Source: an uncultured Planctomycetota bacterium (lineage in GTDB: Bacteria; Planctomycetota; Planctomycetia; Gemmatales; HRBIN36). Taken from it: a stretch of DNA of 64,000 nucleotides. The notes beneath the pieces are model-generated. The model was given only the letters and a program-made list of their open reading frames with translations. It had not been told where the DNA came from and did not search any database. Location of the stretch: the NCBI GenBank assembly GCA_937944855.1, contig CALFAY010000003.1:64470-128469 (forward strand). The letters run 5' to 3'. Made by a program: the position numbers and the translations under genes. Shown here one piece after another: positions 1 to 15,353 of the stretch; position 1 is the stretch's first letter; every line of letters starts with the position of its first letter.

Positions 1-1
1 C

Positions 2-247
2 GAAAACCAGACAGATCGTTTGTTCTTCGATCTCGACAACGCCCACTGGATCGCCGAGTGCCTGCCCTCCGAAGTGGTTCCCTTCCGCACCGAGGGGAAG
101 GTGACGGACCTGTGGGACAAAGGCATCACGCTTTTCGCTCACCTGGAACATCCCGACGACGCCTCCGGCCCGCCGTGGGCTTTGGTCTGGCTCGTCACGC
201 TGTTGGGCGGCGAGTGGCTGACGCGGAAACTCCTGAAACTTGCTTGA
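2..247 (+). CDS. C-terminal end of a gene starting upstream of the window (hypothetical envelope/membrane protein)
   Basis: Frame is open from nt 2 with no stop. It ends ...LVTLLGGEWLTRKLLKLA with TGA at 245-247. It runs in the same direction as, and directly abuts, the next gene. Confidence 0.5.
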   Translation, partial: ENQTDRLFFDLDNAHWIAECLPSEVVPFRTEGKVTDLWDKGITLFAHLEHPDDASGPPWALVWLVTLLGGEWLTRKLLKLA

Positions 248-275
248 GCGATACGCGAACCGTACGGTGGACGAT

Positions 276-3200
276 ATGGCGACCGCAATTCCTCCCGCAG
301 CAACCCGAGCGGATCGGTTTCTGAACTTCGAGCAACCGCTCCGGCAACTGGGTCAGGCGATTCGCACGTATGTGATTTTCGAAGGCATCGCCCTAGCCGT
401 GATCTTCGTGGCCGCCTGGATCGGCACGGTGTTACTGCTCGACTGGGGAACCTTCGCTCTGTTCGGCATCGACTTCCTGCGGGAAGTGCCCGAGAGCCTG
501 CATCTGGGCGTTCGCTGGGTCTTTCTGGGCATTCTGCTGGCTGGACTGGCCTTCGTCCTGGGCTACAAGGTCGCTTACCGCTTGTTGGTGCCGTTTCGTC
601 CCGCGGCGTTGGCCCTGCTGTTGGAACGGCGTTTTCCCCAGGTGCTCCAGGACCGCCTCGTAACCGCCGTCGAGTTGGCAGACCTCGGCGCTGTTGCTGA
701 GATGGGCTACTCGCCGGAGATGGTCGCGGCCACGGCCCGCAGCGCGGCTGCCAAAGTGGAGGAAGTGCCGCTGCTTCGGGTCTTCAACTGGACGCGGCTG
801 CAACGCCTGATGTCCGTGGCGGCGGTCGGAACGGCCGGGGTCTTGGTCCTGGCTCTGTTGGCCACCGATACCTTCGCCCGCTTCGTCGAGCGCGATCTGA
901 TGCTTCGCTCCGTGTACTGGCCGCAGCCCATCATGCTTGACGTGGTCGGCTTCGCCCAGAGCGAGCGGAAGGCCGTCCCGCATGGCGGCGATCTGCGGAT
1001 CACTGTGCGGGCCTACCGTTTCGTTGTTGCTGATGCTTCGCATCCTGAAGGCTGGCGTCCCCTGGCCTGGCCGGATGTAATCCCGGACCTGGGCGACGGC
1101 AGGACGTCCTCGCCTCCGTGGGAACTGCGACGATTGGCTGTCTCTCGGGAACTGTGGCAGTCGTTGCCGGACGCTTGGCGGTCCCTGACTCTCGACGAGT
1201 TGGCCTCCCGTGTGCATGGCACGGGTCAGGCGTCCGAAGAGGATTCCCCTGCTGCCGTCGATGCCGAACTTGGTTTCGTCCTGATTGACCACCTTCGAGA
1301 CCGGCTTGGCAGCTCCTTAACCGGCGCCGCAGAGCCGCTTGACCCTGAATTGCAGGCGTTCCTACCGGAAGCTTGGCGGACCCTTCCTGGCGAGGAAGCT
1401 GGCGAACTGCTCCGGGCCGTAAAGACTCTCAAGCCTGCCGAAGCCGCTCGACTGATCACTCTGCTTCGGGGAACGGCCTGGACGGCGGCGGACGGCGTGC
1501 AGTTGCTCAACGCCGCACTGGGTCTCGGGGTGCCTCCGGTCGTGACGGCTGGGACCGCGCAGGAGATCCTCCAGCGGCTCGATCCGCAGGCTAGGCCCTT
1601 GCTTCTGAGCGACAGCGACCTGGAATTGCTGCCCAAGTCGTGGCGGAATCTGTCCGGCGGAGAGATCGAGGATCGCCTGGTCGCGTTCGTCGGGGAACAC
1701 ACGCTGGAGTCCTTCGGCGCTCGGATGCGGCACCGCCTGAGCCGATTGGTTGACGACCTGCAAGCGTGTGCCAACCTCTCCCACATTGGACGCCGACGCT
1801 ACTTCCGGACCTTGCGAATCCCCGACGAGGTCACGGTCGAGTTCGAACAGCTGCTCACGGAGGAGGAACGAGGGCAGCTCAAGCCGCGTCTGGGCAAACC
1901 CCGGGTCCGTCGTCAGTTGCACAGCAATGAGTTCCTGTACGAGTTCAAAAAGATCGACAGGCCGATGCGGTTCCGCGTCGTGGCGGATTCAGTGGCCACT
2001 GCCTGGAGACGGATCGACGTCAAGGAGCTTCCCGCCCTGCGGAGACTGACGCGGACGCAGAAAGAACTTGGTTACCTGCACGGCAGCAATGCGCGGGTTC
2101 CCGTCGGCCCCTTGCCCGTATCGCTGGAGGGCGAGGAATCGCTGATCGAAGTTCCCAGCGGAACGTTGATCGAGTTTGAGGGCGTCAGTCAAAAACCCCT
2201 CCGTTGGGTTCGCATCGCGCTGCCGGGACAGGCGGAACATCAGACCTGGAGCAAGTGTGCCGCGACGGCCCTGGCCTCGGTGACGCTCGGCCCTGCTGCT
2301 CCGCCAGCCGTTGTGGGGGGCCTCGGGCTGACCTCCTTCATGGAACGGAGCAATCCCTTCGTCCGCTCCCTGGAACACGTGCCCGCGGCGGCGGATTTTC
2401 GCTTTGCCCTGCACGAACTGGCGGCCGACGATTTGAAACTCGAGATCCAGTTCGAGGACGAGGACGGCATCGTGGCCGGACGTCGGCTCCTGCTTCGCGT
2501 CGTCACCGACCGCGAGCCGGAGTTCAAACGCGCCCAACCCGAAATCGTCCGCCGAAAGATGATAACCCCCTTGGCCGTGATTCCCTTCAGCGGACATCTC
2601 CACGACGATCACGGATTGCTGTCCGCGGCCTACGAAGTCACCGTGGAGCAGGTGGATCGCAAGGTCGTTAAGAAGGAATCGTTCCCGATGCGGCGTTTCC
2701 GTCCGCTGCGGTTGCCGGACGAGCCGCCCGATGATCTGGTCTTCGAAAAGCGAGCCGACGTCAGACCAGCACGCTTGCTTCTCGGCCCCTGGGGAGAACA
2801 ACTGACCACCGCTCGAACCGTGGCGCTTTTGCCCCTGGCAGGACCGCTGGTCTTCGCTCAACCTCCGGTCCTCGAAACTGTTCAGGACTATGTCTTCGAG
2901 TTTCAGGTCCGTTCCGGCACCGAGCCGGTGCTCGTTCCCGACGATGAGTTCTTCGACACCCTTCTGCTGCGGGAACAGCCGAACTTCGCGGTGCCGGCTG
3001 AGTCCAGTCCCGCTCCCTTGTCAGTCCCGTATCGGCTGACGGTGAGGCTGATCGCCCAGGACAACCGAGTGCTCACGGGACCCGACGGCCGACCGCAAGC
3101 CGCTCCCCAGCAGGGACGCAGCGCGGAGACGTTCGACTTCCTGGTCGTTTCCGAGGAAGAACTGCTCATCGAAAACAACAAGCGCGAGGAGGATCTGCGC

Positions 3201-3785
3201 GACCGCTGCGAAACCATTATCGCCGCCATCCAGAAGGGCCGGATGTCGATCCTGAAACGCTTGCGCGACGATTTCGACGCGGAATTCAAAATTGGCGACC
3301 GGGTTTACGACTTCCGCCGAGCGGCTGCCGATGCCTCCGACATGCAAAAGCTGCTGCTCGAAAACCAACTGGCGCTGGATGTCGAGGTTTCCAAGGCCTT
3401 CCGCGAGATTTATCGGGAACTGGTGCTGAACCGCTGCAAAGAGCAGGTGGTGGACCGGATCGACAAGCGGATCTGTCGGCCCCTGGAAAGCATCGTCCTG
3501 CCCGGGCAGCACTTCGACCGCGCTCAGAGAAGCTGCGAGGAGTTGGCCCGACGGCTCCAGAGCGAAACCTCGGCGACGCCGCGGGCTGCGGTCGAAGAGG
3601 CCATCGAGCGAACGGATCAGCTGGTGCAGAGATTGGAGGAGATCCTGGCCGAGATGCGGAAGCTCATCGAGTTCAATCAGGCCCTGAAAGTCCTCCAGGA
3701 AATCATCGACAAGCAGCGGGAGATCCTGGAGGCGATCCGCAAAAAGGAACGGGAAGAGCGGTTGAGGGAGCTTCAGGACAAGTGA
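276..3785 (+). CDS. large (about 1170 aa) N-terminally membrane-anchored hypothetical protein, DUF4175-like architecture
   Basis: First ATG of ORF 240..3785. Two hydrophobic helices lie near the N-terminus (IFEGIALAVIFVAAWIGTVLLL, VFLGILLAGLAFVLGY), followed by the LALLLERRFPQVLQDRLVTAVEL segment. The C-terminus is charged coiled-coil (EILAEMRKLIEFNQALKVLQEIIDKQREILEAIRKKEREE). The family name is from memory and tentative. Confidence 0.75.
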   Translation: MATAIPPAATRADRFLNFEQPLRQLGQAIRTYVIFEGIALAVIFVAAWIGTVLLLDWGTFALFGIDFLREVPESLHLGVRWVFLGILLAGLAFVLGYKVAYRLLVPFRPAALALLLERRFPQVLQDRLVTAVELADLGAVAEMGYSPEMVAATARSAAAKVEEVPLLRVFNWTRLQRLMSVAAVGTAGVLVLALLATDTFARFVERDLMLRSVYWPQPIMLDVVGFAQSERKAVPHGGDLRITVRAYRFVVADASHPEGWRPLAWPDVIPDLGDGRTSSPPWELRRLAVSRELWQSLPDAWRSLTLDELASRVHGTGQASEEDSPAAVDAELGFVLIDHLRDRLGSSLTGAAEPLDPELQAFLPEAWRTLPGEEAGELLRAVKTLKPAEAARLITLLRGTAWTAADGVQLLNAALGLGVPPVVTAGTAQEILQRLDPQARPLLLSDSDLELLPKSWRNLSGGEIEDRLVAFVGEHTLESFGARMRHRLSRLVDDLQACANLSHIGRRRYFRTLRIPDEVTVEFEQLLTEEERGQLKPRLGKPRVRRQLHSNEFLYEFKKIDRPMRFRVVADSVATAWRRIDVKELPALRRLTRTQKELGYLHGSNARVPVGPLPVSLEGEESLIEVPSGTLIEFEGVSQKPLRWVRIALPGQAEHQTWSKCAATALASVTLGPAAPPAVVGGLGLTSFMERSNPFVRSLEHVPAAADFRFALHELAADDLKLEIQFEDEDGIVAGRRLLLRVVTDREPEFKRAQPEIVRRKMITPLAVIPFSGHLHDDHGLLSAAYEVTVEQVDRKVVKKESFPMRRFRPLRLPDEPPDDLVFEKRADVRPARLLLGPWGEQLTTARTVALLPLAGPLVFAQPPVLETVQDYVFEFQVRSGTEPVLVPDDEFFDTLLLREQPNFAVPAESSPAPLSVPYRLTVRLIAQDNRVLTGPDGRPQAAPQQGRSAETFDFLVVSEEELLIENNKREEDLRDRCETIIAAIQKGRMSILKRLRDDFDAEFKIGDRVYDFRRAAADASDMQKLLLENQLALDVEVSKAFREIYRELVLNRCKEQVVDRIDKRICRPLESIVLPGQHFDRAQRSCEELARRLQSETSATPRAAVEEAIERTDQLVQRLEEILAEMRKLIEFNQALKVLQEIIDKQREILEAIRKKEREERLRELQDK

Positions 3786-3861
3786 TCGGCCCAGGAACGA
3801 TGGGCCGAGGACGGTTGGCTTTAAGAAACTTTTCCCGGAAAAGGTTGTTTGAAGACTGGGG

Positions 3862-3906
3862 GAATGCCGTTTACAGTTAGAAGAGGGAACGGCGTTCGTC
3901 TTTGTG
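3862..3906 (+). terminator. hairpin plus U-rich tail between the first two genes of the array (possible attenuator/terminator)
   Basis: GAATGCCGTT (3862-3871) pairs with AACGGCGTTC (3888-3897) in a 10-bp stem with one G-U pair and a 16-nt loop, followed by GTCTTTGTG. Confidence 0.3.
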
Positions 3907-4000
3907 AGCGTGGGGCTTGTGGACGGTTCCCTGGCGGGTGTCGGGGTTCGCAGGGCAGTTGACGACTGGCACGAGAACCTTGGGTTCGGAGGTTGTGACG

Positions 4001-5674
4001 ATGATCCCTCGGCTTGCGGGTGCATGGCTGATCCTGACGGCCGGAATCGTGCTGGTGGCGTATGCCCAGGATCCGGCCCGGCCTGTTGCTGCGGACGGAA
4101 ACCAACCGACCGCGACCACGCCTTCCGCAGAGCAAGCCCAGCTTGCCAGCCGATACCGACAACTCGAAGAAACCCTTCTGCGGATCGCCCAGAAATTGGA
4201 AAAGCGGGGACCTGAAGACCGCAACAAGGCCCGTCTGATCTATCGTGCCCTCCGCGAGGCCAAGGAGAAAGGCATCGCCGTCAACCTCGCCGAGTTGGCA
4301 GAAGACCTCAAGAAGCCCGCCCTGAAAGACCTCTCCGCCGCCATTGCTAAGGGAACGATTGTCGAAGAGGATTTGCGTCGCATCCTTAACCTGCTTCTGG
4401 CTGACGAGGAGGAAGACAGCAACAAGAAGGAAATCGAGTTCCTCAAGGAACTGGTCAAGGACCTGGAAAAGGCGATCCGGGACCAGAAGACCGCCATCGC
4501 TAAAAACGCCAGCCCCAGCGTGGATAACGAGGCCGCCGGCAAAGCCCAACAGGTCGCTACCCGCCAGGCCGAGGACATCCTCAAGAAGATCAAGAGATTC
4601 GAGGATGCCAAGAAGGGCGCCCAAACCAAGGCCGATGGTGCCAAGCCCTCCGACCGGAATCAGGGCGAGGGCAAAGGTCAGGGTGAAGGCAAAGGTGAGG
4701 GCAAAGGCGAAGGCAAGGGGGAAGGCGAAGGGAAGGGAGAAGGTAAAGGCGAGGGGAAAGGCCAGGGCGAGGGCCAAGGTGAAGGAAAAGGCCAAGGTCA
4801 GGGACAGGGCCAGGGTCAAGGTCAGGGCCAGGGGCAGGAGGGTGAAGGCGGCTTTCCGGGTCGGGAAAAGATCCAGGATGCCAACGATTACCAGAAGCGA
4901 GCCGAAGACAAGATCGCCAAGAATCAACGCCCCGATGCCGGCAACGACCAGCAGGAGGCCAAGGACCGCCTGGAACAAGCCAAGAAGCGGCTGGAAGAAA
5001 TCCTCCGGCAGATGCGCGAGGAAGAGCAGGAACGCATCCTGGCCGACCTGCTCCAGCGTTGTGAGAAGATGCTCCAGATGCAGGAGATCGTTTACGACAA
5101 CACCAAGAAAATCCATGAACGCATCGAAGCCACGTCGGACAAGAAGCCGTCGCGGGAAGAGGAAATCGCGGCCCGCCGTCAGTCCGACAAGGAGGACGAA
5201 ATCGTCCTCGAAGCGGACAAGGCCCTGACGCTGCTGGAAACCGAGGGCACTTCCGTAGCATTCGTCGAGGTGTTGCAGCAGGTCCGCAACGATATGGTCC
5301 ATGTTTCCCGCCGCCTGGCCAAGGCCGACGTCGGCCCCGAAACCCAGACCATCGAGGAAGACATCATCGCTACGCTCAAAGAAATGATCGAAGCCCTCAA
5401 ACGTCAGCTCCAGGAGTCGCGGGAGCGACGCAACAATCCGCCGTCTCAGGGAGGAGGCGATCAGCTTCAAAGTTTGATTGACCTGCTGGCGGAATTGAAG
5501 ATGATCAAAGCGATGCAGGTGCGCGTGTACAACCGCACGGTGCTGTGGGGCAAACGCTACCAGGGCGAGTTGGCGCGCGATCCCGACATCATCACCGAAT
5601 TGAAGGACTTGGCGATCCGGCAGAACCGTATTTATCAGATCACGGATAACATCGTGAAAGGGAGAAACCGATGA
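4001..5674 (+). CDS. secreted coiled-coil protein with central (G-E/Q-G-K/Q)n low-complexity spacer
   Basis: ATG at 4001 is preceded by GGAGGT. Signal-peptide-like MIPRLAGAWLILTAGIVLVAYAQD. Long charged helical regions. The stop overlaps the next start (ATGA at 5671-5674). Confidence 0.8.
   Translation: MIPRLAGAWLILTAGIVLVAYAQDPARPVAADGNQPTATTPSAEQAQLASRYRQLEETLLRIAQKLEKRGPEDRNKARLIYRALREAKEKGIAVNLAELAEDLKKPALKDLSAAIAKGTIVEEDLRRILNLLLADEEEDSNKKEIEFLKELVKDLEKAIRDQKTAIAKNASPSVDNEAAGKAQQVATRQAEDILKKIKRFEDAKKGAQTKADGAKPSDRNQGEGKGQGEGKGEGKGEGKGEGEGKGEGKGEGKGQGEGQGEGKGQGQGQGQGQGQGQGQEGEGGFPGREKIQDANDYQKRAEDKIAKNQRPDAGNDQQEAKDRLEQAKKRLEEILRQMREEEQERILADLLQRCEKMLQMQEIVYDNTKKIHERIEATSDKKPSREEEIAARRQSDKEDEIVLEADKALTLLETEGTSVAFVEVLQQVRNDMVHVSRRLAKADVGPETQTIEEDIIATLKEMIEALKRQLQESRERRNNPPSQGGGDQLQSLIDLLAELKMIKAMQVRVYNRTVLWGKRYQGELARDPDIITELKDLAIRQNRIYQITDNIVKGRNR
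4664..4852 (+). repeat. in-frame purine-rich tandem repeat encoding GEGKGQGEGKGEGKGEGKGEGEGKGEGKGEGKGQGEGQGEGKGQGQGQGQGQGQGQEGEGG
   Basis: Imperfect 6/12-nt periodic GGC/GAG/GGC/AAA units read directly in the sequence. It lies inside CDS 4001..5674. Confidence 0.9.
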
Positions 5675-6702
5675 GCCGTCTGACTGCGTTGGCCCTGGCG
5701 GCCTGCTGTGTGGTAGGGATAGGAACAGCCCAGGTCTGGCTTGACGCGGCTCACGGGGCCGATCCGATCTTCGGCGTCATTCGCGCACCGACCCTGGAAC
5801 AGGCCAAACAACAGACCTTCGAGACTCTGACCGCGCTTAAGGCGGATGCCGCGGCCCTCCAGAAAATCGAGCCGCTGTGGAATACGCTCGACGACCGCGG
5901 CTTGCTTGACCGCGTCGCCGAGAGCTTCGCCGCCGCCGATCCCCGGGTTGCTGAGCTGCTCTTGAGCGTGCGTTCGCCGTCCTCGCCGGGCACCGTCCCG
6001 GAACTCCTGAAGGATTCCGGGCTGCCGGTGTTCTTCCGGGCCAACGTCGGCCTGGCTTACGCCCGACATCTGGTTAATCGCCGGGTCAATGAGGAAGCGC
6101 TGGAAATCCTCCGCTCCGTTCGGCCCGAACAGGTGGTCGATCCCGCAGCGTACTACTTTTACAAGGCCGTTGCTGAGAATCGCCTGCTGCTCAAGGAAGA
6201 AGGCTTGCAGTCGCTGGATCGGCTGTCGAAGACCGTGGCCGATGTGCCGGAACGCTACCTTGTCCTGGCCGATCTGATGCGCCGGGAGATGCAGAACTGG
6301 AAGGACAAGGACCTCAGCTACGTCGCCCGCCGCATGGAAGAAGTCGAAAGCCGTCTCGACAACGCCCGCGGCGGCCCCAAGACGCAGGCCAAGCAGAAGG
6401 AGATCATTGACCTGCTCGACAAGCAAATCGAGGAACTGGAAGCGCAGTGCCAGGCCATGTGTGCCTCCAGTAGCTCCGCCAATCGTTCCAACGCTCCGCT
6501 GCCGGACAGCCGCATCATGGGCGGTGCCGGTCCCGGCAACGTGGACAAGAAGAAGCTGCTGAAGACTCTCGAAGTCTGGGGCAAGCTCCCGGAGAAGGAG
6601 AAGGTCAAGGCCCTGGAGGCCATCAAGCGCGACCTGCCGCCTTATTACCAGGAGGCCATCGAAGGCTATCTCAAGGAACTGGCCCGCGGCACCCAGAAGT
6701 GA
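5671..6702 (+). CDS. secreted hypothetical protein (helical; C-terminal LPPYYQEAIEGYLKELA motif)
   Basis: Translationally coupled to the upstream gene. Signal-like MSRLTALALAACCVVGIGTAQV. Coding-like composition throughout. Confidence 0.8.
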   Translation: MSRLTALALAACCVVGIGTAQVWLDAAHGADPIFGVIRAPTLEQAKQQTFETLTALKADAAALQKIEPLWNTLDDRGLLDRVAESFAAADPRVAELLLSVRSPSSPGTVPELLKDSGLPVFFRANVGLAYARHLVNRRVNEEALEILRSVRPEQVVDPAAYYFYKAVAENRLLLKEEGLQSLDRLSKTVADVPERYLVLADLMRREMQNWKDKDLSYVARRMEEVESRLDNARGGPKTQAKQKEIIDLLDKQIEELEAQCQAMCASSSSANRSNAPLPDSRIMGGAGPGNVDKKKLLKTLEVWGKLPEKEKVKALEAIKRDLPPYYQEAIEGYLKELARGTQK

Positions 6703-6809
6703 GGCCGGCGATTGTTGTGCGTGGAGATTCCTGACAGGCCGTCCGGGGCGGCACGGCAACCGCCGTGAACCTCCCGACGGCCTGTTCCGTTTCAGAGCCT
6801 GAGTACACA

Positions 6810-8051
6810 ATGCTGTCGCTGTCGCTTTGCCTGGCATCGCTGATCTTTCTTGCCGATCCCGACCCTGCCTCTGACCGGGGTGCCGTTCACACCCTGACCC
6901 GGCTAGACGGGACCGTGCAACGCCTCGAAGTCCTCGAACTGGGAGCGCAGCGGCTCCGGGTTCGGCAAGATGGACAAGAAACCCACACCGAAACCACGGA
7001 CCTGCTCGCCGTCGTTTTGCAACCGGCCCATCCGACGCCCTTCGCCGGGCCGTACCTCGAAGTCCGCCTTGTGGACGACGCCTTTTTCCGCTGTGCCGCC
7101 GTCGGTTTCCGCGGCAAACAGGTCGAACTGCGTTTGTTCAATGGGCTGAAAGTCGAATGCCCTCTGGATGCGCTGCGGAGCCTGCTGTGCGATGCTCAGG
7201 ACGAAGCCAATCGGGCCGAGTTCAAACAGCTCATGGAACGCAACACGCCTTTCGACCGGCTCCGGCTGGCCAGTCGGGACGGTACGACGATCAACACCTT
7301 CGAGGGCATCGTCGGGGATGCCGACGAAGAGGGCCGCTCGATCCGCTTTAAGACCGAGGATACGACGGCCAACATCGCTTTGAATCGTGTCCGGGGGATC
7401 ATCTTCCATCGCCGCATCGAACCAGGCGCGTTTCAGCCGGTGTGCCGAATTGTGGATGTGTTCCAGAACGTCATTCCGGCCAAAGAGATCAGCCAGAGCA
7501 GTGAGGTGCTGCATGTGACGACCCCGGCAGGCGTTCGAGTGGTCCTGCCCGTGGAGCTGGTGCAGCAGGTGGATTACAGCCCTGGCAAGCTGGCCTATTT
7601 GTCCGATCTGGAACCGACGCTCAAGGAGTTCCGTTTCGGGGTGAAGGAGGACCTGCTGCGTTCGCTGCCGGAGAAATACGGGCGGGACACCACGCTGTTT
7701 GCCGGTCAGAATGGCTCCTCCCGGCAGATTCGCATCGGCGGTCGGATCTTCGCCAGGGGCCTCAACGTCCATTCGCCGACCGTTCTGGAATTCGACGTCA
7801 CCGGCTATAAGTGGTTCCGCTGCGTTCTGGGCATGGATGACGGCGTGGCGCGACCGGGCCGGGCGGGGGTGCGGATCGAAGGCGACGGTCGGGAATTGTT
7901 CAGCACCCTTGTTGCCGGCGGCGACAGGCCGAAAGAGTTGGAAATCAAGATCACGGGAGTTCGCCGTCTGCGGCTGGTCGTGGATCGCGGCGACGATGAC
8001 GACGAACTGGGCGATCACGTCAGCTTCGGCGATGCCCGGGTCACCAAATAA
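6810..8051 (+). CDS. secreted protein with C-terminal NPCBM/NEW2-like domain
   Basis: ATG at 6810 gives the signal-like MLSLSLCLASLIFLA. The C-terminus GRIFARGLNVHSPTVLEFDVTGYKWFRCVLGMDDGV...VRIEGDGRELF...RRLRLVVDRGDDDDELGDHVSFGDARV matches the NPCBM pattern (G..vha.s...y.l.g.y..F.a.vG.DD...V.F.V..DG...L.L.v....g...D...w..A.l). Confidence 0.7.
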   Translation: MLSLSLCLASLIFLADPDPASDRGAVHTLTRLDGTVQRLEVLELGAQRLRVRQDGQETHTETTDLLAVVLQPAHPTPFAGPYLEVRLVDDAFFRCAAVGFRGKQVELRLFNGLKVECPLDALRSLLCDAQDEANRAEFKQLMERNTPFDRLRLASRDGTTINTFEGIVGDADEEGRSIRFKTEDTTANIALNRVRGIIFHRRIEPGAFQPVCRIVDVFQNVIPAKEISQSSEVLHVTTPAGVRVVLPVELVQQVDYSPGKLAYLSDLEPTLKEFRFGVKEDLLRSLPEKYGRDTTLFAGQNGSSRQIRIGGRIFARGLNVHSPTVLEFDVTGYKWFRCVLGMDDGVARPGRAGVRIEGDGRELFSTLVAGGDRPKELEIKITGVRRLRLVVDRGDDDDELGDHVSFGDARVTK

Positions 8052-8078
8052 CCCTGTGCCACGAAGGATACCGCTGCT

Positions 8079-9914
8079 ATGAAAGCGTGGACGTTTGCGA
8101 CTCTGTCCGCCACAGTGCTTCTGACGGCCCTGGCCGCTCGAACCGGGGCCGTGCCGCCGGTCATCGCTGAGGCCGAGGCCCGCCGTCTGGCCGCCATCGA
8201 AAAAGTCCGCGGCTCGGTGGTGGCGATCTTCGGTCGGGGCGGAGGCGGAGGCGGTTCCGGCGTGCTCATCTCTCCGGACGGCTACGCTTTGACCAATTTC
8301 CACGTCGTGCAACCGGCGGGGAAGTTCATGAAGTGCGGCCTGGCCGACGGCGTGCTCTACGATGCCGTCTTGGTCGGACTGGATCCGGTCGGCGACGTCG
8401 CCCTCATCAAGCTCTTGCCCCAAGAGCCGAACAAGCCGTTCCCCTTCGCCGCCATGGGCGACAGCGACAAGGTCCGCATCGGCGATTGGGTCCTGGCGAT
8501 GGGCAATCCGTTCCTGTTGGCCACGGATTTCACGCCTACCATCACCTACGGCCTGGTCAGCGGAGTCAATCGCTACCAGTACCCCGCCGGCACGATCCTG
8601 GAGTACACCGACTGCATCCAGATCGACGCCTCGATCAACCCGGGCAACAGCGGTGGCCCGCTCTTCAATCTCGACGGGGAAATCATCGGGATCAACGGCC
8701 GCGGCTCGTTCGAGAAGCGTGGACGGGTCAACTCTGGCGTCGGCTACGCGATCTCGATCAACCAGATCAAGAACTTTCTGGGGCACCTCAAGGGCGGGCT
8801 GCTGGTGGACCATGCCACGCTCGGGGCCGTCGTCCGCACCGACGAAGAAGGCCGGCTCGTCGTCCGGCAGATCCTGGAGAGCAGCGACGCCCATCGGCGC
8901 GGTCTGGACGTGGACGATGAGTTGGTTTCCTTCGCCGGTCGGCCCATGACCAGCGTGAACCAGTTCAAGAACGTGCTGGGAATCTATCCCAAGGGCTGGC
9001 GGTTGCCTCTGGTCTATCGGCGGACCGACGAGGAGCGAAACACCACGACGACGCACCAGGTGTTGGTTCGGTTGCTCGGCGTCGGCGTGGATCGGCAATT
9101 GGAAGAGCGCCAGCCGCGACCCATTCCAGGTCAGCCTCCCGAGCCGCCTCAACCAGGCCAGCCGCGTCGGCCTCCCGGCCAGCCGCCCACGCCGCCCGAA
9201 GATGCCGAGGACAAGCCGGAGGAGAAAGCGCCAAGCCCGGCTGCCAAGTTCTACGAGGAAAAGAAGGGCTTCGCCAATTACTACTTCAACCGCCTGGAAC
9301 GGGACCGGCTGATGGCCGAGGTCAAGAAACTCGGCGACTTCAGCGGAGTCGGCGAAGCTTGGCGGATCGAAGGCGAGCGCGTGCAACCGGTCAAGGACGC
9401 CTTCGCCGCCGTCGTCCGGCAAGGTCAGGTCCGGTTGACCCTGGGCGAGCAGGAATACGCTCTGGAACCGCTCAAGCCGGGCGAATCGCTGACCAATCTC
9501 CGTGAACCCCGCGACAGCGGCGGGTTGATGGCCGCGCTGTACGTCTGGCGTCGCTTCCTGGAAAAGGGACCGGAGGGCTTTGAGATCGACTTCCATTACG
9601 GCGGTTACGAGCCGTTCTACTCGGACGGCACGGCTCCCAGCCGCGTCGATTGCGAAGTGCTTGTTGCCGAACATGGTCCGTTCTACGCCAAGTGGTATTT
9701 CCGCCGCACTGACGGCCAGTTGATCGGCATGGAAACCTATACGGAAAAGGACCATGATCCCTGCGAGATCACTTTCAGCGACTACCGGGATGTCGATGGC
9801 CGCAAATTGCCGCATCGCCTCGAAGTCCGTCATGCGGGGAAGGATTTCGGCATCTTCGTCATCAAGTCCCATGACCTTAAGACGGCATCTGATTCCAAGG
9901 AGAAGCAGCCTTGA
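8079..9914 (+). CDS. HtrA/DegP-like S1C serine protease with PDZ domain and Pro-rich linker plus unknown C-terminal domain; catalytic triad intact
   Basis: Signal peptide present. His in GYALTNFHVV, Asp in GDVALIKL, Ser in NPGNSGGPLFN. PDZ-like VVRQILESSDAHRRGLDVDDELVSFAG. Confidence 0.9.
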   Translation: MKAWTFATLSATVLLTALAARTGAVPPVIAEAEARRLAAIEKVRGSVVAIFGRGGGGGGSGVLISPDGYALTNFHVVQPAGKFMKCGLADGVLYDAVLVGLDPVGDVALIKLLPQEPNKPFPFAAMGDSDKVRIGDWVLAMGNPFLLATDFTPTITYGLVSGVNRYQYPAGTILEYTDCIQIDASINPGNSGGPLFNLDGEIIGINGRGSFEKRGRVNSGVGYAISINQIKNFLGHLKGGLLVDHATLGAVVRTDEEGRLVVRQILESSDAHRRGLDVDDELVSFAGRPMTSVNQFKNVLGIYPKGWRLPLVYRRTDEERNTTTTHQVLVRLLGVGVDRQLEERQPRPIPGQPPEPPQPGQPRRPPGQPPTPPEDAEDKPEEKAPSPAAKFYEEKKGFANYYFNRLERDRLMAEVKKLGDFSGVGEAWRIEGERVQPVKDAFAAVVRQGQVRLTLGEQEYALEPLKPGESLTNLREPRDSGGLMAALYVWRRFLEKGPEGFEIDFHYGGYEPFYSDGTAPSRVDCEVLVAEHGPFYAKWYFRRTDGQLIGMETYTEKDHDPCEITFSDYRDVDGRKLPHRLEVRHAGKDFGIFVIKSHDLKTASDSKEKQP

Positions 9915-10990
9915 CCAGGCCCATACCGATCCTATTTGCCGTGGTGGGATGGCTGGCCGCCGCGACGGCCATTCGGGCCGATGTCTCTTTCGCCGAGGTC
10001 GTCCGTAAGACCAATCCCAAGATCGTCAAGGTGTACGGTGCGGGCGGTTTCCGCGGCATCACGGCGTACTGCTCTGGCGTCCTCATTTCCCCGGACGGGT
10101 ACATCCTGACGGTGTACAGCCCGACGCTGGACACGCGCGAATTGCGCGTCCACTTGTACGACGGCACCCGCCATGCGTGCGAACTGGTCGCCGCCGAACC
10201 CCAGCTTGATGTCGCTCTGATCCGCATCAAGGATCGGGAACGCTTCAAGGATTTGCCCCTGGAGCATTTCGATTTGAGCCAGCCGCCGCCGGAAATGAAG
10301 GTCGGCGATTGGGTGCTGGCGTTCAGCAATCTGTTCGAGATCGCCACGCGGGACGAGCCAGTGTCGGTGCAGCGCGGCGTGATCTCGGCCATCACGCCGT
10401 TCGCAGGCCGACGCGGCATCCACGAGGCGGCATACAGGGGCAAGGCGATCATCGTGGACGCCATCACCAACAATCCGGGGGCACACGGCGGGGCGTTGAC
10501 GACGCGCAAGGGCGAACTCATCGGCATCATCGGCAAGGAACTGAAGAACGCCCTGTCCGAAACCTGGGTCAACTACGCCATGCCGATCACGGAACTGCGG
10601 GACTTCGCCTTGCGGGCCATGCGCGGCGACTACAAACCGCTGGACCGGCCCGAGACCCGTCAGGTCGTGGACAAGAAACCCTACCACGGCCTTGTCCTCG
10701 TCCCCGACATCCTTGACCGCACGCCGCCGTATGTCGAGGAAGTTATCCCCGGCTCTCCCGCGGCACGAGCCGGTCTGCGGCCCGATGATCTCATCGTCTT
10801 CATTCGTGCTCCGCGTCCCGACTCTCCGGGCGAGTTGGAAGAGCGGGTCATCGCCAGTTGCAAAGCGTTCAAGGAAACTCTGGCCGGACTCGACCCCGGC
10901 ATGACCATCAAGGTCATCGTGCGCCGGGGAGGCCAACTGCTCAGTCTCGACCTGACCCTGGAGCCGCCTCCGCCGGCAGCCACCAAATGA
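9911..10990 (+). CDS. HtrA-like paralog with non-canonical triad (His->Ser and Ser->His) plus PDZ domain
   Basis: TTG start overlaps the upstream stop (TTGA at 9911-9914). GVLISPDGYILTVYSPT aligns without gaps to GVLISPDGYALTNFHVV. LDVALIRI keeps the Asp. NPGAHGGAL replaces NPGNSGGPL. PDZ-like VEEVIPGSPAARAGLRPDDLIV. Confidence 0.85.
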   Translation: MTRPIPILFAVVGWLAAATAIRADVSFAEVVRKTNPKIVKVYGAGGFRGITAYCSGVLISPDGYILTVYSPTLDTRELRVHLYDGTRHACELVAAEPQLDVALIRIKDRERFKDLPLEHFDLSQPPPEMKVGDWVLAFSNLFEIATRDEPVSVQRGVISAITPFAGRRGIHEAAYRGKAIIVDAITNNPGAHGGALTTRKGELIGIIGKELKNALSETWVNYAMPITELRDFALRAMRGDYKPLDRPETRQVVDKKPYHGLVLVPDILDRTPPYVEEVIPGSPAARAGLRPDDLIVFIRAPRPDSPGELEERVIASCKAFKETLAGLDPGMTIKVIVRRGGQLLSLDLTLEPPPPAATK

Positions 10991-13128
10991 GGCCTGATTC
11001 GATGCGACACTCCATAATGCGTTTTGCAATGCTGATGCGGCTTGTGCTTGCTGTCGGGTGCCTCCTCCAAGCGGCTTCGATGACGGTTTCCGCGAAGGAA
11101 GATGTGGATGCCGCTCTGGAACAGGCGACCAAGGCTGCTCTGGACCGCATCTCTCCGGTCGTGGTCCAGATTCGCACCGTCGGCGGCCTGGAGGTCGTCA
11201 GCGGCGTCCGGAAGGGACTGGGACCGACCACCGGCGTCATCGTGGACCCGGACGGCTACATCATTTCCAGTTCGTTCAACTTCGCCAGCAAACCCTCGGC
11301 CATCGCCGTTTCGCTGCCCGGTCGTCAGGAGCCGCTTAACGCTCAGGTCGTAGCTCAGGACCAGACCCGGATGCTGACCTTGCTCAAGGTCGAGGCCAAT
11401 AACTTGCCCACGCCCGCCTTCGTGCCGAAATCGGAGATCCGGCTCGGCCAATGGGCCTTGGCTGTCGGACGCACCTGGGCCGACGTGTATGCCGGACCGC
11501 CTTCGGTCAGCGTCGGCATCATCAGTGCCAAGGACCGCATCTGGGGCAAGGCCCTTCAGACCGATGCCAAGGTGTCTCCGGTCAACTACGGTGGACCGCT
11601 CATCGACCTCGAAGGCCGCGTTCTGGGCATTCTCGTCCCCCTCTCTCCCCAGCGGGATGACGAGACCGCCGGGGTCGAGTGGTATGACGGGGGTATCGGC
11701 TTCGCCATTCCGATGGAGGACATCCTCGCCGTCCTGCCAAAACTGAAGCAGGGAACCAATCTCACCCGCGGGTTGCTCGGCATCCGCATGAAGAGCCGAG
11801 ATCAGTTCTCCGCCCCGCCGGTCATCGGCGAAGTAGGACCGGGCACAGCCGCGGCCAAGGCGGGCTTGCTGCCGGGCGATCTGATCATCGAAGTGGACGG
11901 CAAACCCGTCAGCCGATACGCCCAGATTCAGCACATTCTCGGCGTCAAGTACGCCGGCGACCGCGTGAGCCTGAAGGTGAAACGCGGCGATCAGGTGCTC
12001 GATTTCCCCAACATCGAACTGACCGGACCGCCCCAAGCCACCGCACTGGCGTTTCTCGGCATTCTGCCGATGCGGGACGATCCCGAAGCTGGGGTCGCGG
12101 TTCGGTATCTCTTTCCCAACGGCCCAGCGCGGCAGGCGGGAATCCGACCTGGGGACCGGATCGTGCGGCTCAACGACCAACCGATCCTCAACCGCCTGCA
12201 TCTCAGTCAGGTTGTCTCCCGACTGGCTCCGCAGTCCGAAGTCACACTCGATGTGAAACGCAAGGACGCCGACAAAACCGACAAGATCAAGGTCCGCCTG
12301 GCGGAACTGACCCCCGAATTGCCCGAAGATGAGCTTCCCGAAGGGACGTTGAAACAAGCCCTGGCACCACAACAGCCCTTGGTCCTGCCCGGCGGCGGTC
12401 CCGGCGGGCAACCGCGCCCCGGTCCCATGCCGCAGCCGCGTCCGATGGGTCAGCCTCCTCGGCCGCGTCCCGGACGCGATAAGCAACCTCAGCCGAAGCC
12501 GGAGGTCCCCAAAGGCGTGATTCAGCATACCGACCCCGCGACGGGCCACGCCTACTGGCTGTACGTCCCGGAAAACTACGATCCGAACATCTCGCACGGC
12601 CTGATCATCTGGCTGCATCCGGCTGGTGACACGATGGAACAGGCCATGCTGCGGTTGTGGCAAGACCTGTGCAAGAAGCATCATCTGATCCTGTACGGTC
12701 CCAAGGCCGAAAACCCGACCGGCTGGCTGACCAGCGAAGCCGATCTGATCCGGGAAGACCTGCGCAAGATCGCCGCGGAGTACACTCTCGACCGCTCCCG
12801 CATCGTGACTCACGGCCTCGGGCAGGGAGCCAGCTTTGCCCTGTATCTGGCCTTCGACGCCCGTGACCAGGTCCGAGGCGCGGCGGTGTTCGGCGGTGCG
12901 CTGCCGAATCTGCCCCGCGACCTGAGCGGGCCTCCGCTTTCGTTCTTCCTCGTCGGCGGCGGTCGGGATCCTGAGATCGAGGCCTTTCGCGCCGTCAAAC
13001 CCGCCCTGGAGGAGCGCAAGTTTCCGGTCAACTACCGCGAGTTGCCGGAGCATGGCAATGGCTACGTCACCGATCCCGGAGTCCTCCGGACATTGATGAG
13101 CTGGATTGAAGGACTGGACCGCATTTAG
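10987..13128 (+). CDS. HtrA-like pseudoprotease (all three triad residues replaced) with two PDZ domains, Pro-rich linker and esterase-like domain lacking the Ser nucleophile
   Basis: ATG overlaps the upstream stop (ATGA at 10987-10990). Signal-like MRFAMLMRLVLAVGCLLQAASMTVSA. GYIISSSFNF (no His), RMLTLLKV (no Asp), SPVNYGGPL (Ser->Tyr). PDZ-like GEVGPGTAAAKAGLLPGDLIIEVDG and LFPNGPARQAGIRPGDRIVRLN. C-terminal LIIWLHPAGD...RIVTHGLGQGASFALYLAF has GLGQG where an esterase has GxSxG. Confidence 0.85.
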   Translation: MRPDSMRHSIMRFAMLMRLVLAVGCLLQAASMTVSAKEDVDAALEQATKAALDRISPVVVQIRTVGGLEVVSGVRKGLGPTTGVIVDPDGYIISSSFNFASKPSAIAVSLPGRQEPLNAQVVAQDQTRMLTLLKVEANNLPTPAFVPKSEIRLGQWALAVGRTWADVYAGPPSVSVGIISAKDRIWGKALQTDAKVSPVNYGGPLIDLEGRVLGILVPLSPQRDDETAGVEWYDGGIGFAIPMEDILAVLPKLKQGTNLTRGLLGIRMKSRDQFSAPPVIGEVGPGTAAAKAGLLPGDLIIEVDGKPVSRYAQIQHILGVKYAGDRVSLKVKRGDQVLDFPNIELTGPPQATALAFLGILPMRDDPEAGVAVRYLFPNGPARQAGIRPGDRIVRLNDQPILNRLHLSQVVSRLAPQSEVTLDVKRKDADKTDKIKVRLAELTPELPEDELPEGTLKQALAPQQPLVLPGGGPGGQPRPGPMPQPRPMGQPPRPRPGRDKQPQPKPEVPKGVIQHTDPATGHAYWLYVPENYDPNISHGLIIWLHPAGDTMEQAMLRLWQDLCKKHHLILYGPKAENPTGWLTSEADLIREDLRKIAAEYTLDRSRIVTHGLGQGASFALYLAFDARDQVRGAAVFGGALPNLPRDLSGPPLSFFLVGGGRDPEIEAFRAVKPALEERKFPVNYRELPEHGNGYVTDPGVLRTLMSWIEGLDRI

Positions 13129-13145
13129 GTTCCCCGAAATCAGGC

Positions 13146-14129
13146 TCAGCGGTATCGCTCCGGGAAGCCAAGCTGTTCCAGGTGCTCGCGCAACATTCTC
13201 TCCTGTTCCGCAGTCAGATCCGCCAACGGGGGCCGAACGGGACCGCAATCCACACCCAGAATCGCCATAACCCGTTTGGCCGCTGGGAGAAAGCCGAAGC
13301 GACTCAGACACGAGATCAGCTCGTTGGCCTGATGCTGGAGTTGCCGGGCGTGGTCCAGGTCGCCTTCCGCAAAGGCTTGCAGTAAGCGGAGATACAGTCC
13401 TGAAGCATAGTTGTAGTTGGTCCCGACGGCCCCTCGGACGCCCAGGGCCGCGGCGGGCAGCAGCATCTCGTCCAGCCCAAAGAGGACGTCGAACCGGCCC
13501 TCGTCCCACCGCAGGCAGCGCAACAAATCCATCAGATCGGGATGTGAAAACTTCGCCCCGGCCAGCGATGGAACTTGCGCCGCGGCTTCGCGCAACAAAT
13601 CGCTGACCGGAATCGTCACGCCGGTGCGCATCGGAATGTGATAGTAGTAAAACGGCAAGTCGGGGGCGGCCTCGGCCACCCGACGGCAGAAGGCGACCAG
13701 GTCGGCGACCGAGTACGGCTTGTAATAGCTTGGCGCGAAGCAACTTATGGCTGAGGCACCGATCTGTTGCGCGTGCCCGGCCAGTTCTCGACAATCCTCA
13801 AGGCTCTCACTGCCGACATGAACCATGACATTCAAGTCCACTTCTGAGGCAATCGCGCACCATCGCCGCGCAACATTTTTGCGTTCATCCACGCTGAGCG
13901 AAGGTCCTTCGCCGGTGGTGCCGTTGATGAACACCGTCTGAATCCCAACCGATTGCAGCCATTGGGCTTGTGCGTCAATTCCGGCAAGGTTCAGGGAGCC
14001 GTCGGCGTGGAACGGAGTGAAAGTGGCCGCGATCAGGCCGGTGTAGCGATTCACGACTATGAGCCTCGGATGCAGTTCCAGATGCGGAAACAGATCTAGT
14101 CTAAACGGTGCCTCCTGGCTGCGCAACAT
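13146..14129 (-). CDS. dihydrodipicolinate synthase / N-acetylneuraminate lyase family class I aldolase
   Basis: GLIAATFTPFHADGSLNL, INGTTGEGPSLS, GAKFSHPD and an overall DapA-family layout. The start codon is uncertain because the N-terminal 25 aa are not family-like. Confidence 0.8.
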   Translation of the reverse strand: MLRSQEAPFRLDLFPHLELHPRLIVVNRYTGLIAATFTPFHADGSLNLAGIDAQAQWLQSVGIQTVFINGTTGEGPSLSVDERKNVARRWCAIASEVDLNVMVHVGSESLEDCRELAGHAQQIGASAISCFAPSYYKPYSVADLVAFCRRVAEAAPDLPFYYYHIPMRTGVTIPVSDLLREAAAQVPSLAGAKFSHPDLMDLLRCLRWDEGRFDVLFGLDEMLLPAAALGVRGAVGTNYNYASGLYLRLLQAFAEGDLDHARQLQHQANELISCLSRFGFLPAAKRVMAILGVDCGPVRPPLADLTAEQERMLREHLEQLGFPERYR

Positions 14130-14279
14130 TTTTTACCCAAGTCAGCCCCTGCGGTTGGAGGCGTGAATCCATGATTCTCGGCACTTCCCCTTGACGGGCC
14201 AATGCCACCAAGGATGCCCTCCCTTGCAGTATGGATATATGAACATTTGAACATTTCCTGAACGTGCCGTCGAGGTGCG

Positions 14280-14308
14280 TTGACCCATATCGACAGGCGG
14301 CTTAGAAT
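14280..14308 (+). promoter_or_regulatory. sigma70-like promoter candidate for the dksA-like/lspA unit
   Basis: TTGACC (14280-14285), 17-nt spacer, TAGAAT (14303-14308), 30 nt upstream of the ORF. A tandem GAACATTT GAACATTT lies just upstream (about 14241-14256). Confidence 0.4.
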
Positions 14309-14337
14309 AGACGAATTGAAGATCAGACACCCTTCGG

Positions 14338-14730
14338 ATGGACAGCGAGGATGGCATGAAGAGCAGCGAATTGGCTCGCTTCAAGGAACGACTACTCGCT
14401 CTGCGTGCCCGTTGCACCGGCGATGTCAATCAACTGGCCGATGAAGGTCTGCGACGCGGTGAGGACGGCGTGGCCGGCAATCTGTCCAATCTCCCGCTGC
14501 ATCTGGCGGATGTCGGGTCGGACAACTTTGAGCAGGAGTTCACCCTGAGTCTGCTCCAGAACGAGGGGAAGCTGCTGGCGGAGATTGACGCCGCCCTGGG
14601 TCGCATTGCCAAGGGCACTTACGGCATCTGCGAGCAGTGCGGGGCCGCTATTCCCAAGGAACGGCTCAAAGCGGTACCTTACACCGCCTATTGCGTCAAT
14701 TGTGCACGGAAGCTGGAAGAGCGATCATGA
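14338..14730 (+). CDS. DksA/TraR-family C4 zinc-finger protein
   Basis: C-terminal CEQCGAAIPKERLKAVPYTAYCVNC four-Cys finger preceded by a coiled-coil. The alternative start at 14356 (MKSSEL...) has the better SD (GAGGA). Confidence 0.85.
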   Translation: MDSEDGMKSSELARFKERLLALRARCTGDVNQLADEGLRRGEDGVAGNLSNLPLHLADVGSDNFEQEFTLSLLQNEGKLLAEIDAALGRIAKGTYGICEQCGAAIPKERLKAVPYTAYCVNCARKLEERS

Positions 14731-15353
14731 GCGACTCGCCGATCCCCGGCAAATCCTGGTCTTGGCTTTTTGTGGTGCTCGCGGTTGCAGGATTCGTCGC
14801 TGATCTGGGTTCCAAGTACGCGGTCAATGCGTGGCTGGACCAGGATCGGCATCACATCACTGTCGGCGGCTTCGTACACAAGGGTTACGAGATCGTTCCC
14901 GGCATGTTCAGCTTGGTGCGCCAGGAGGGTTTGAACCGGGGAGCGCTGTTCGGCCTAGGCAATCATCCTGAGCACGGAGACAAGGCGAATCTGCTTTTCG
15001 CCGGGATCAGCGCCGCCGCGGCCGTGCTCATCGTCCTGTGGAGCTTCCGCCGAAGCGTGGTTTCTTCCGGGGCGCTGAGTCTGGCTCTGGGTCTGATTCT
15101 GGCCGGGGCCTTGGGCAATCTCTACGATCGGCTGGTGTTCGGCGGCGTCCGCGATTTCATCTGGGTGTACTACCAGAGTGCGGACGACGGCCGCTTGCTC
15201 TTCAATTACCCGGTCTTCAATCTCGCTGACACGTTCCTGTGCATCGGGGCGGCGGTGCTGGTGCTGCGCACGATCTTCGCGCCGTCGGATCGGAGGGCGG
15301 ACGCGGCCCGTTCGCCGAACCCGCCTGCCGAGGCCGCCCGCTCCGCGGGTTAA
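14727..15353 (+). CDS. lspA: lipoprotein signal peptidase (signal peptidase II)
   Basis: ATGA overlap with the upstream stop. LGSKYAV, NRGALFGLG, GNLYDRLVFGGVRDFI and FNLADTFLCIGA are LspA signature segments. Confidence 0.9.
   Translation: MSDSPIPGKSWSWLFVVLAVAGFVADLGSKYAVNAWLDQDRHHITVGGFVHKGYEIVPGMFSLVRQEGLNRGALFGLGNHPEHGDKANLLFAGISAAAAVLIVLWSFRRSVVSSGALSLALGLILAGALGNLYDRLVFGGVRDFIWVYYQSADDGRLLFNYPVFNLADTFLCIGAAVLVLRTIFAPSDRRADAARSPNPPAEAARSAG

Follow-up and report, generated by a model that had tools for sequence, protein, structure and literature searches.

Organization of the gene array

The window analysed here is a stretch of 64,000 nucleotides (nt) from an uncultured planctomycete of the order Gemmatales (GenBank assembly GCA_937944855.1, contig CALFAY010000003.1, positions 64,470 to 128,469 of the forward strand). 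Listing and translation of its open reading frames (ORFs) revealed, on the plus strand between positions 2 and 13128, seven complete genes and the 3' end of an eighth, designated g0 to g7. Comparison with related sequences indicated a conserved Gemmatales cluster of at least 12 co-directional genes, of which this array makes up the distal two-thirds; homologs likewise assign the organism to Gemmatales. The genes are listed below with the lengths of their products in amino acids (aa).

2-247 (continuing from upstream), plus strand: g0, only the C-terminal 81 aa of a predicted vWA protein; the gene begins upstream of the window
276-3785, plus strand: g1, 1169 aa, predicted membrane-anchored protein
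4001-5674, plus strand: g2, 557 aa, predicted secreted helical protein
5671-6702, plus strand: g3, 343 aa, predicted secreted helical protein
6810-8051, plus strand: g4, 413 aa, predicted NPCBM protein
8079-9914, plus strand: g5, 611 aa, predicted HtrA-type protease
9911-10990, plus strand: g6, 359 aa, predicted HtrA-type pseudoprotease
11017-13128, plus strand: g7, 703 aa, predicted HtrA-type pseudoprotease with an esterase-like domain; an alternative ATG at 10987 would give a 4-nt overlap with g6

The junctions between these genes measured +28 nt (g0/g1), +215 nt (g1/g2), -4 nt (g2/g3), +107 nt (g3/g4), +27 nt (g4/g5), -4 nt (g5/g6) and, depending on the start chosen for g7, -4 or +26 nt (g6/g7), in agreement within 1 nt with the gaps and overlaps given in a first-pass annotation of the same DNA. 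The start of g1 fits the gene calls in the close relatives P0001 and P0002 (1169 and 1168 aa), and that of g7 fits the 703-aa gene of L086, a relative with 95% identity in g3 (P numbers denote g1 homologs and L numbers homologous loci). In this genome of 63% GC, the signature GC3>GC1>GC2 favoured the plus-strand frames over long antisense ORFs. Inspection of the N-termini by eye, together with a Kyte-Doolittle scan, found export or membrane signals in all complete products, as had been predicted for the array, with classical signal-peptide h-regions in g2, g3, g6 and g7. The array ends at g7, because the following gene (13146-14129), whose ortholog in L086 is a DHDPS gene, is convergent. No Rfam match was obtained in positions 1-14500 of the window, and a promoter and terminator scan stayed at background level.

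Conservation of the cluster and its upstream module

Gene order in relatives was examined from two anchors. The g3 anchor provided 80 loci, one genome per species, on which the genes were mapped by tblastn, and the g1 anchor provided 80 loci on metagenome contigs, a species-redundant set in which L137 and L138 are identical in layout. Synteny was counted by tblastn at E<=1e-6, because a codon-GC gene finder fails on lower-GC loci, and all counts depend on the flanks available. With the g3 anchor, g2 stood ahead of g3 in 50 of 64 loci and g4 behind it in 53 of 74, and all of g4-g7 followed g3 in 41 of 54. Among the 40 loci with both flanks, 24 carried the complete g1-g7 row and seven carried g2-g7 without g1, the remainder consisting of one locus with g2-g5 (g6 and g7 not detected), one with g2-g3 only and seven with a lone g3 paralog elsewhere. 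With the g1 anchor, g2 followed g1 in 36 of 48 loci, and the series g2 to g6 was present in 13 of the 19 loci having at least 9 kb of flank. Pairwise comparison with a distant full array (L003) showed homology of g1, g2, g3 and g4 at 29-40% identity. The first-pass annotation had proposed a conserved co-directional unit, to be given up if synteny failed in related genomes; tblastn from both anchors found the order kept in dozens of loci, and the proposal was borne out. That the array is kept in dozens of species-level genomes and of metagenome contigs, at protein identities as low as about 30-40%, argues that the arrangement is more than chance.

The 81-aa fragment of g0 aligned end-to-end with the C-termini of g0 orthologs of about 1000 aa, with 93% identity to those of L001 and L004 and 54-65% to those of L002 and L006-L009, which identifies it, by homology, as the C-terminus of a predicted BatB-like membrane vWA protein of about 1000 aa. 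The MIDAS motif D.S.S...TN.G...DG is kept in 25 full-length g0 orthologs, and the Pfam VWA match in one ortholog was weak (E 2.7e-4, below cut-off). In all 59 loci with enough flank, g0 lay immediately upstream of g1. Extending the view further upstream, a check recommended in the first-pass annotation, gave a positive result by homology: MoxR, DUF58, BatA and g0 genes precede g1 in 36 of 37 metagenome loci with at least 9 kb of upstream sequence (tblastn). The MoxR protein of L003 matched AAA_3 (E 8.6e-61), with a secondary match to bpMoxR (6.6e-10). DUF58 (PF01882) was identified in L002, L003 and the P0008 contig, and by tblastn at the same position in the 36 of 37 loci. BatA of relatives matched PF07584 (E 3.2e-13) and TIGR02226 (E 4e-13 and 1.3e-11). 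Both BatA and g0 are about 1000 aa long and have extra beta-sandwich domains such as CARDB.

Two further features of this upstream region were observed. Directly before MoxR and on the same strand, 22 of 25 loci carry a gene of about 380 aa with prenyltransferase/squalene-hopene-cyclase repeats (alpha/alpha-toroid), for example at L101:985-2133, L100:1176-2309 and L003:3-857; counted with this gene, the conserved cluster may comprise 13 or more genes. In L107, a second MoxR-type cluster with DUF58, BatA and g0 homologs (L107:15689-22178) shares the contig of the first and lies convergent to it, so that a single genome can contain paralogous clusters of the Bat type.

The cluster is modular, with g2-g7 separable from the part that runs from MoxR to g1. 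In the seven of 40 loci with g2-g7 without g1, an opposite-strand gene lies upstream of g2; conversely, MoxR to g1 occur without g2-g7 in 12 of 48 loci, and likewise in L002 and on the P0008 contig. No junction of the array is wider than that between g1 and g2, which measures 215 nt in the window and has a median of 165 nt in relatives, and the junctions inside g2-g7 other than g2/g3 have medians of 12-38 nt. The picture of one continuous array thus held for the gene order and failed for the idea of one indivisible unit. Since each half occurs without the other and the gap between them is the widest, the functions of the two halves need not be coupled.

These observations weigh against a single functional system and are the basis of its strongest rival, in which two independent operons happen to be neighbours, g2-g7 being autonomous with a promoter of its own in the g1-g2 gap and the adjacency being a lineage accident. 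The loci with an opposite-strand neighbour agree with it, in that g2 would head the operon there, as do the loci where the upstream half ends with g1. On the other side, about 75% of the loci keep the same order and orientation whichever anchor is used, even where protein identity falls to roughly 28-40%, and neutral adjacency is unlikely because such linkage would rarely outlast that divergence; the gaps also contained no consensus terminator in a scan that is uninformative for this phylum. Independent neighbourhood is therefore considered a rather unlikely explanation, and a coupling of the two halves is preferred.

A lower-GC sub-lineage of freshwater-type metagenome-assembled genomes differed in layout. 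Three of its loci (L067, L073 and L076) have about 5 kb of other DNA between g5 and g6-g7, and in a fourth (L063) neither g6 nor g7 was detected.

Predicted products of the array

The C-terminal part of g4 (residues 296-412) matched NPCBM (PF08305) with E 1.6e-22 and 80.4 bits against a cut-off of 23.9, well in line with the NPCBM protein expected from the first-pass annotation, and its relatives in the Protein Data Bank (PDB) are NPCBM/CBM51-type modules (7js4, 2vmh and 2vmg). On this homology, the C-terminus of g4 is a predicted carbohydrate-binding domain of the CBM51 type.

The three genes that follow encode HtrA-like proteins, whose best PDB relatives are DegQ and DegP. In g5, Trypsin_2 (E 1.1e-31) and TIGR02037 (E 1e-59, below cut-off) were matched, and the protein consists of an HtrA/DegP-type domain, one PDZ domain, a Pro-rich linker and a C-terminal domain of about 230 aa. 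The catalytic columns of its orthologs hold His in 54 of 54, Asp in 54 of 54 and Ser in 52 of 54 sequences, and g5 is accordingly predicted to be a catalytically competent serine protease. The product of g6, with one PDZ domain, matched the same models (Trypsin_2 E 1.5e-19; TIGR02037 8e-29, below cut-off). Alignment to g5 and DegQ showed that in the window its catalytic His is replaced by Ser and its Ser by His (NPGAHGG), the Asp being kept. Among 48 g6 orthologs, the His column holds Ser in 30 and Asn in 15 and never His, the Asp column holds Asp in 46, and the Ser column holds Ala, His, Gly or Asn, with Ser in a single sequence. The g7 product has two PDZ domains (Trypsin_2 E 3.5e-19; PDZ_2 E 5.3e-28; TIGR02037 4e-52, below cut-off) and a Pro-rich linker before its C-terminal domain, and all three catalytic residues are exchanged in the window (His to Ala, Asp to Met, Ser to Tyr). 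Its orthologs show Ala, Ile or Val in the His column, Met in 39 of 44 in the Asp column and Tyr in 40 of 44 in the Ser column.

The C-terminal domain of g7 (window 12457-13128) gave a weak match to Abhydrolase_2 (E 1.8e-5, 25.1 bits against a cut-off of 23) and one to NF050058 below its cut-off (E 1.2e-8). The G-x-S-x-G nucleophile elbow is absent, GLGQG aligning with GFSFG of the feruloyl esterase 8jh8, and the nucleophile column of the orthologs holds Gly in 29 of 44 and Ser in 1 of 44. From these alignments g7 appears to be a double pseudoenzyme, a dead protease joined to a dead esterase, and is kept so in most orthologs. Catalytic residues are lost in about 98-100% of g6 and g7 orthologs, and the column counts in 44-54 orthologs, with the constant gene order, indicate that one active protease with two ancient pseudoproteases is a fixed feature of the module. 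The protease/pseudoprotease trio described in the first-pass annotation was in this way confirmed and found to be evolutionarily fixed.

A Kyte-Doolittle scan of g1 revealed three hydrophobic segments (27-63, 74-105 and 175-201), and an AlphaFold2 (AF2) model with a mean predicted local distance difference test (pLDDT) score of 78 placed transmembrane (TM) helices at 19-63, 73-104 and 172-208. The model thus describes g1 as an inner-membrane-anchored protein with three TM helices, followed in order by a conserved helical juxtamembrane region with the motif ALALLLERRFP..DRLVTAVELAD, a small beta unit, a helical insert (265-499), tandem beta-sandwiches (510-957) and a helical bundle (960-1168). 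Foldseek against the PDB returned generic Ig-like/MG arrays only (E~1e-4, TM-scores <0.2), among them PrgB, C3, alpha-2-macroglobulin and protocadherins. Precomputed Pfam domains were absent from the listed homologs P0001-P0020, except for the WD40 insert of P0012.

The insert of g1 (residues ~265-499, window 1068-1772) is swappable, being helical here and a WD40 beta-propeller in L003 (gene at L003:10001-14059) and a few relatives, and the TM/juxtamembrane region and the distal part remain homologous despite the swap. Tblastn matches to g1 in L032, L063 and L076 were disregarded as WD40 cross-matches from the L003 query. Shorter g1-like proteins of about 820 aa also occur (P0013-P0020), one of which (P0016, L084:9736-12240) is encoded by a lone gene beside DUF1501 and PSCyt2/PSD1 genes with the MoxR cluster absent upstream.

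The domains of g4, g7 and g1 bear on another explanation of the array, that of cell-surface or cell-wall remodelling. Here the recognition of a specific envelope glycan (such as peptidoglycan, lipopolysaccharide or a capsule or holdfast polysaccharide) would fall to g4 and to the dead esterase domain, and the protease would process surface proteins at that site, for example in budding division or attachment. A bona fide CBM51/NPCBM module in g4, an esterase-like fold of g7 that lacks the nucleophile and is compatible with a binding role, and the likeness of the g1 beta-sandwich array to periplasm-spanning or surface stalks (PrgB Ig domains, GldM, PorU) all fit this view. Pfam and NCBIfam searches of the array products nevertheless found no glycoside hydrolase, transglycosylase, amidase or secretion-system component, the fold matches of g1 are generic, and nothing points to a ligand or to substrates. 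Remodelling as the primary role is for these reasons held to be improbable.

The variable middle of g1, with its propeller in some relatives, also recalls the MoxR-vWA 'ternary' systems of biological conflict or anti-phage defence (Kaur et al., 2020), in which case the protease would be the effector. The secondary bpMoxR match of MoxR points the same way, as do weak matches of a few g2 relatives to the ternary-system domains bpX0 and TCAD2. The best match of MoxR is nevertheless the generic AAA_3, and its succession by DUF58 and BatA is the MRP/Bat pattern. PADLOC returned no system-specific match; its only results were a weak DolB match of the L003 MoxR (E 1.4e-4) and, for g5, a generic match to the RT-Protease_XI trypsin domain. 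Every product is exported or a membrane protein, the set of genes stays the same with no swapping of effectors, and in the published beta-propeller system it is the vWA protein that bears the propeller, unlike in the present cluster. Neither a third component of the VMAP, iSTAND, FtsH or vWA-fused propeller type nor variable effectors were found, and a conflict system is regarded as highly improbable.

The AF2 model of g2 is all-alpha (pLDDT 75, exceeding 90 in the C-terminal bundle at residues ~288-552). It comprises N-terminal helices, a disordered low-complexity linker rich in Gly, Glu, Lys and Gln, and a highly conserved C-terminal helical bundle with many invariant polar residues that ends in AELKMI..MQ.RV..RT. 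The overall composition of g2 is 11.8% Glu, 9.7% Lys, 9.2% Gly and 8.4% Gln. Tandem Repeats Finder located an imperfect 12/18/36-nt repeat at 4660-4838 (plus strand), which encodes the GEGKGQ linker. Linker length varies widely, with orthologs of 519 to 865 aa. A profile search against 1.84 billion representatives, in which the members inspected were the strong matches, gave a family of 3242 clusters at 50% identity (E<=1e-3). A strong AT skew (+0.29) at window positions 4001-6000 coincides with g2.

The product of g3 is predicted to be helical and secreted and has the conserved C-terminal motif WGKLPEKE..A...RDLPP.Y.E.IE.Y.K.LA. Its family numbers at least 391 proteins, all of them without a Pfam domain; a TPR label is given in some sources, but no TPR model matches. 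Relatives keep the 4-nt overlap of the g3 start with the g2 stop, the median over 59 loci being -4 nt. A hidden Markov model (HMM) of the g3 motif matched only g3-family ORFs across all fetched loci, so the C-terminal motifs of g2 and g3 are best taken as signatures of these two families. The suggestion that such motifs recur in MoxR/Bat clusters therefore holds only in so far as g2 and g3 usually follow Gemmatales clusters of that kind.

Members of the g3 family were also seen in other arrangements. Two adjacent g3-family ORFs, both with the C-terminal motif, lie at L046:8646-10900 and L071:9902-12145, an apparent tandem duplication, and the g3 match is unusually long in L129 and L156. Paralogs outside the array occur in a recurrent mini-operon (L035:8601-11625; also L028, L017, L037, L039 and L049) of two thioredoxin-fold proteins (AhpC/TSA-Redoxin), a g3-like protein and a protein of about 185 aa without Pfam match; this thiol-redox setting is a hint of a general adaptor role of g3-type proteins in the periplasm. 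Elsewhere, g3-like genes (L021:11249-18708, L036 and L069) and, in L065 (11154-13993), a g2-g3 pair have as neighbours an ABC-2 transporter, a GldG-like ABC_transp_aux protein and a DUF4340 protein in place of the NPCBM and protease genes.

The description of g1 as a DUF4175-like giant protein was not supported. PF13779 (DUF4175) had no match at E<=10 in the g1, g2 and g3 of the window and none at E<=0.1 in 34 g1 orthologs, so that 0 of 35 g1 sequences match. Weak matches, taken as below threshold, were obtained in 3 of 53 g2 orthologs (best E 1.5e-6) and 4 of 75 representatives (best 2.1e-5), and no other Pfam family recurs among g2 relatives; the ten most Gln-rich g2 orthologs gave no match. 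DUF4175/TIGR02302 proteins are large, low-complexity membrane proteins that end MoxR-DUF58-vWA clusters in alphaproteobacteria, an end-of-cluster position that would resemble that of g1 and g2. The one characterised member found in the literature, Acinetobacter AdvA, has a role in cell division and stands in a different context (PMC7481262). The g2 family may be remotely linked to DUF4175.

Beyond the array (window positions 13146-15353), the annotation of L086 points to the convergent gene of the DHDPS family, a gene for a DksA/TraR zinc-finger protein and lspA, which encodes signal peptidase II. The location of lspA near a cluster for exported proteins may be coincidence.

Relation to known systems and proposed mechanism

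The upstream half of the cluster, as judged from relatives, has the features that define Bat/MRP MoxR systems, and recognisable BatC, BatD and BatE appear to be absent. As in the Bat/MRP operons of B. fragilis (BatA-E), Leptospira, Borrelia (BB0170-0176) and Riemerella, MoxR (AAA_3) comes first and is followed by DUF58, BatA/TIGR02226 and a MIDAS-vWA protein, with further helical or large membrane proteins and envelope-directed products. Those operons have BatD (PF13584) and the TPR proteins BatC and BatE, whereas g1-g3 gave no BatD, TPR or SH3 Pfam match at E<=10, and the Gemmatales cluster adds g1-g3, the NPCBM protein and three HtrA paralogs. Neither such additions to a Bat operon nor the combination as a whole were found described in the open-access literature searched.

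Known systems share only some features with the downstream half. MamE and MamO are an active and a dead HtrA protein encoded in one cluster (PMC4794232), and like them the present genes combine active and degenerate HtrA paralogs in a dedicated envelope cluster. The MamE/MamO models in NCBIfam scored 42-105 bits against a cut-off of 800, weak matches that arise from the shared S1C fold. Unlike MamE/MamO, there is no magnetosome context here, and two distinct pseudoproteases are fixed, one of them with a dead esterase domain. With DegP, DegQ and DegS the trio shares the trypsin-like S1C domain and PDZ domains, g5 keeping the triad; it differs from them in scores below the equivalog cut-offs, in the single PDZ and own C-terminal domain of g5, and in the inactivity of g6 and g7. 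The HtrA oligomers described so far are homo-oligomers. A link between a MoxR/DUF58/vWA cluster and genes for secreted envelope peptidases is also present in mycobacteria, where the moxR1-DUF58-vWA operon adjoins ripAB and MoxR1 interacts with RipA and is reported to chaperone its export (PMC12067865). Unlike the present case, RipAB are NlpC/P60 peptidoglycan hydrolases in a separate bicistronic operon, and homologs of HtrA, NPCBM and g1-g3 are absent.

The order and conservation of the genes, the identity of their domains, the lost catalytic residues and the modular make-up of the cluster were observed directly in the loci compared, and from them we infer each physical interaction, the heteromer, the compartments and the physiological role proposed below. 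The preferred reading, held with moderate confidence, is that a Bat/MRP-type MoxR-vWA machine of the inner membrane is coupled to a scaffold in the periplasm, to a protein that binds glycan and to a heteromer of HtrA proteins. The upstream module would consist of a cytoplasmic MoxR AAA+ ATPase, DUF58, the double-TM protein BatA/TIGR02226, the MIDAS-vWA protein g0 and the three-TM protein g1, whose beta-sandwich stalk and helical tip would reach into the periplasm; for Borrelia BB0173, the Bat-type vWA domain faces the periplasm (PMC5700661). The products of g2-g7 would form a separable periplasmic set, in which g2 and g3 would be translationally coupled helical scaffolds. Together, g5, g6 and g7 might assemble into a hetero-oligomer with a single type of active site and four PDZ domains among the three paralogs, the dead g6 and g7 with their PDZ and esterase-like domains acting as substrate or ligand sensors and gates. 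Targeting of the complex to a glycan-rich envelope layer would be the task of g4, which with the dead esterase domain may bind envelope glycan or acyl ligands. Docking of the HtrA complex onto the periplasmic end of g1 could be provided by g2 and g3, and the MoxR-vWA machine would then remodel or assemble the complex with ATP, MoxR AAA+ ATPases being remodelling chaperones that act with vWA/MIDAS partners. The net role would be a regulated, targeted processing or quality control of envelope proteins. The coupling is proposed because of the linkage of about 75% from both anchors, the fixed order and the translational coupling within g2-g7.

Besides the modularity already considered, several points weigh against this reading. 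The genes upstream of g0 are known from relatives only, exact-sequence searches with g1 and g3 having given no match and the nearest contigs ending inside g0 or g2, and the h-regions of g4 and g5 are shorter (14-15 aa), their signal-peptide-like character having been judged by eye only. Much of the set is uninformative with regard to function: g1, g2 and g3 had no Pfam or NCBIfam match at E<=10, g2 no significant PDB fold match and g3 no PDB sequence relative by profile, and the N-terminal ~290 aa of g4 matched no known family and the C-terminal ~230-aa domain of g5 no PDB sequence relative. Reported functions of Bat operons are moreover inconsistent, with an oxidative-stress phenotype in Riemerella and none in Leptospira.

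A stronger form of the coupling reading, which we consider unlikely as it stands, is that g2-g7 constitute a client or effector set, the first to be recognised, of a Bat/MRP-type MoxR-vWA machine. An ATP-driven complex of the inner membrane, made of MoxR, DUF58, BatA, g0 and g1, would assemble or gate a periplasm-spanning scaffold of the g1 tip, g2 and g3, and so place an obligate HtrA heterotrimer, with one live and two dead subunits, and a glycan reader at the cell wall. If true, it would represent an energised, spatially targeted periplasmic protease of a new type.

MRP-type MoxR/DUF58/vWA ('Bat') operons are widespread, their substrates and mechanism are obscure and their phenotypes conflict, and a lineage with about 75% linkage offers concrete, well-defined candidate partners for a Bat-type machine. 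Genomic context is also gained for three large families without a Pfam model, namely g1, g3 and g2, the last of which exceeds 3000 clusters at 50% identity. In addition, the trio provides a natural HtrA example of one active and two long-dead paralogs, which bears on the regulation of oligomeric proteases by pseudoenzymes.

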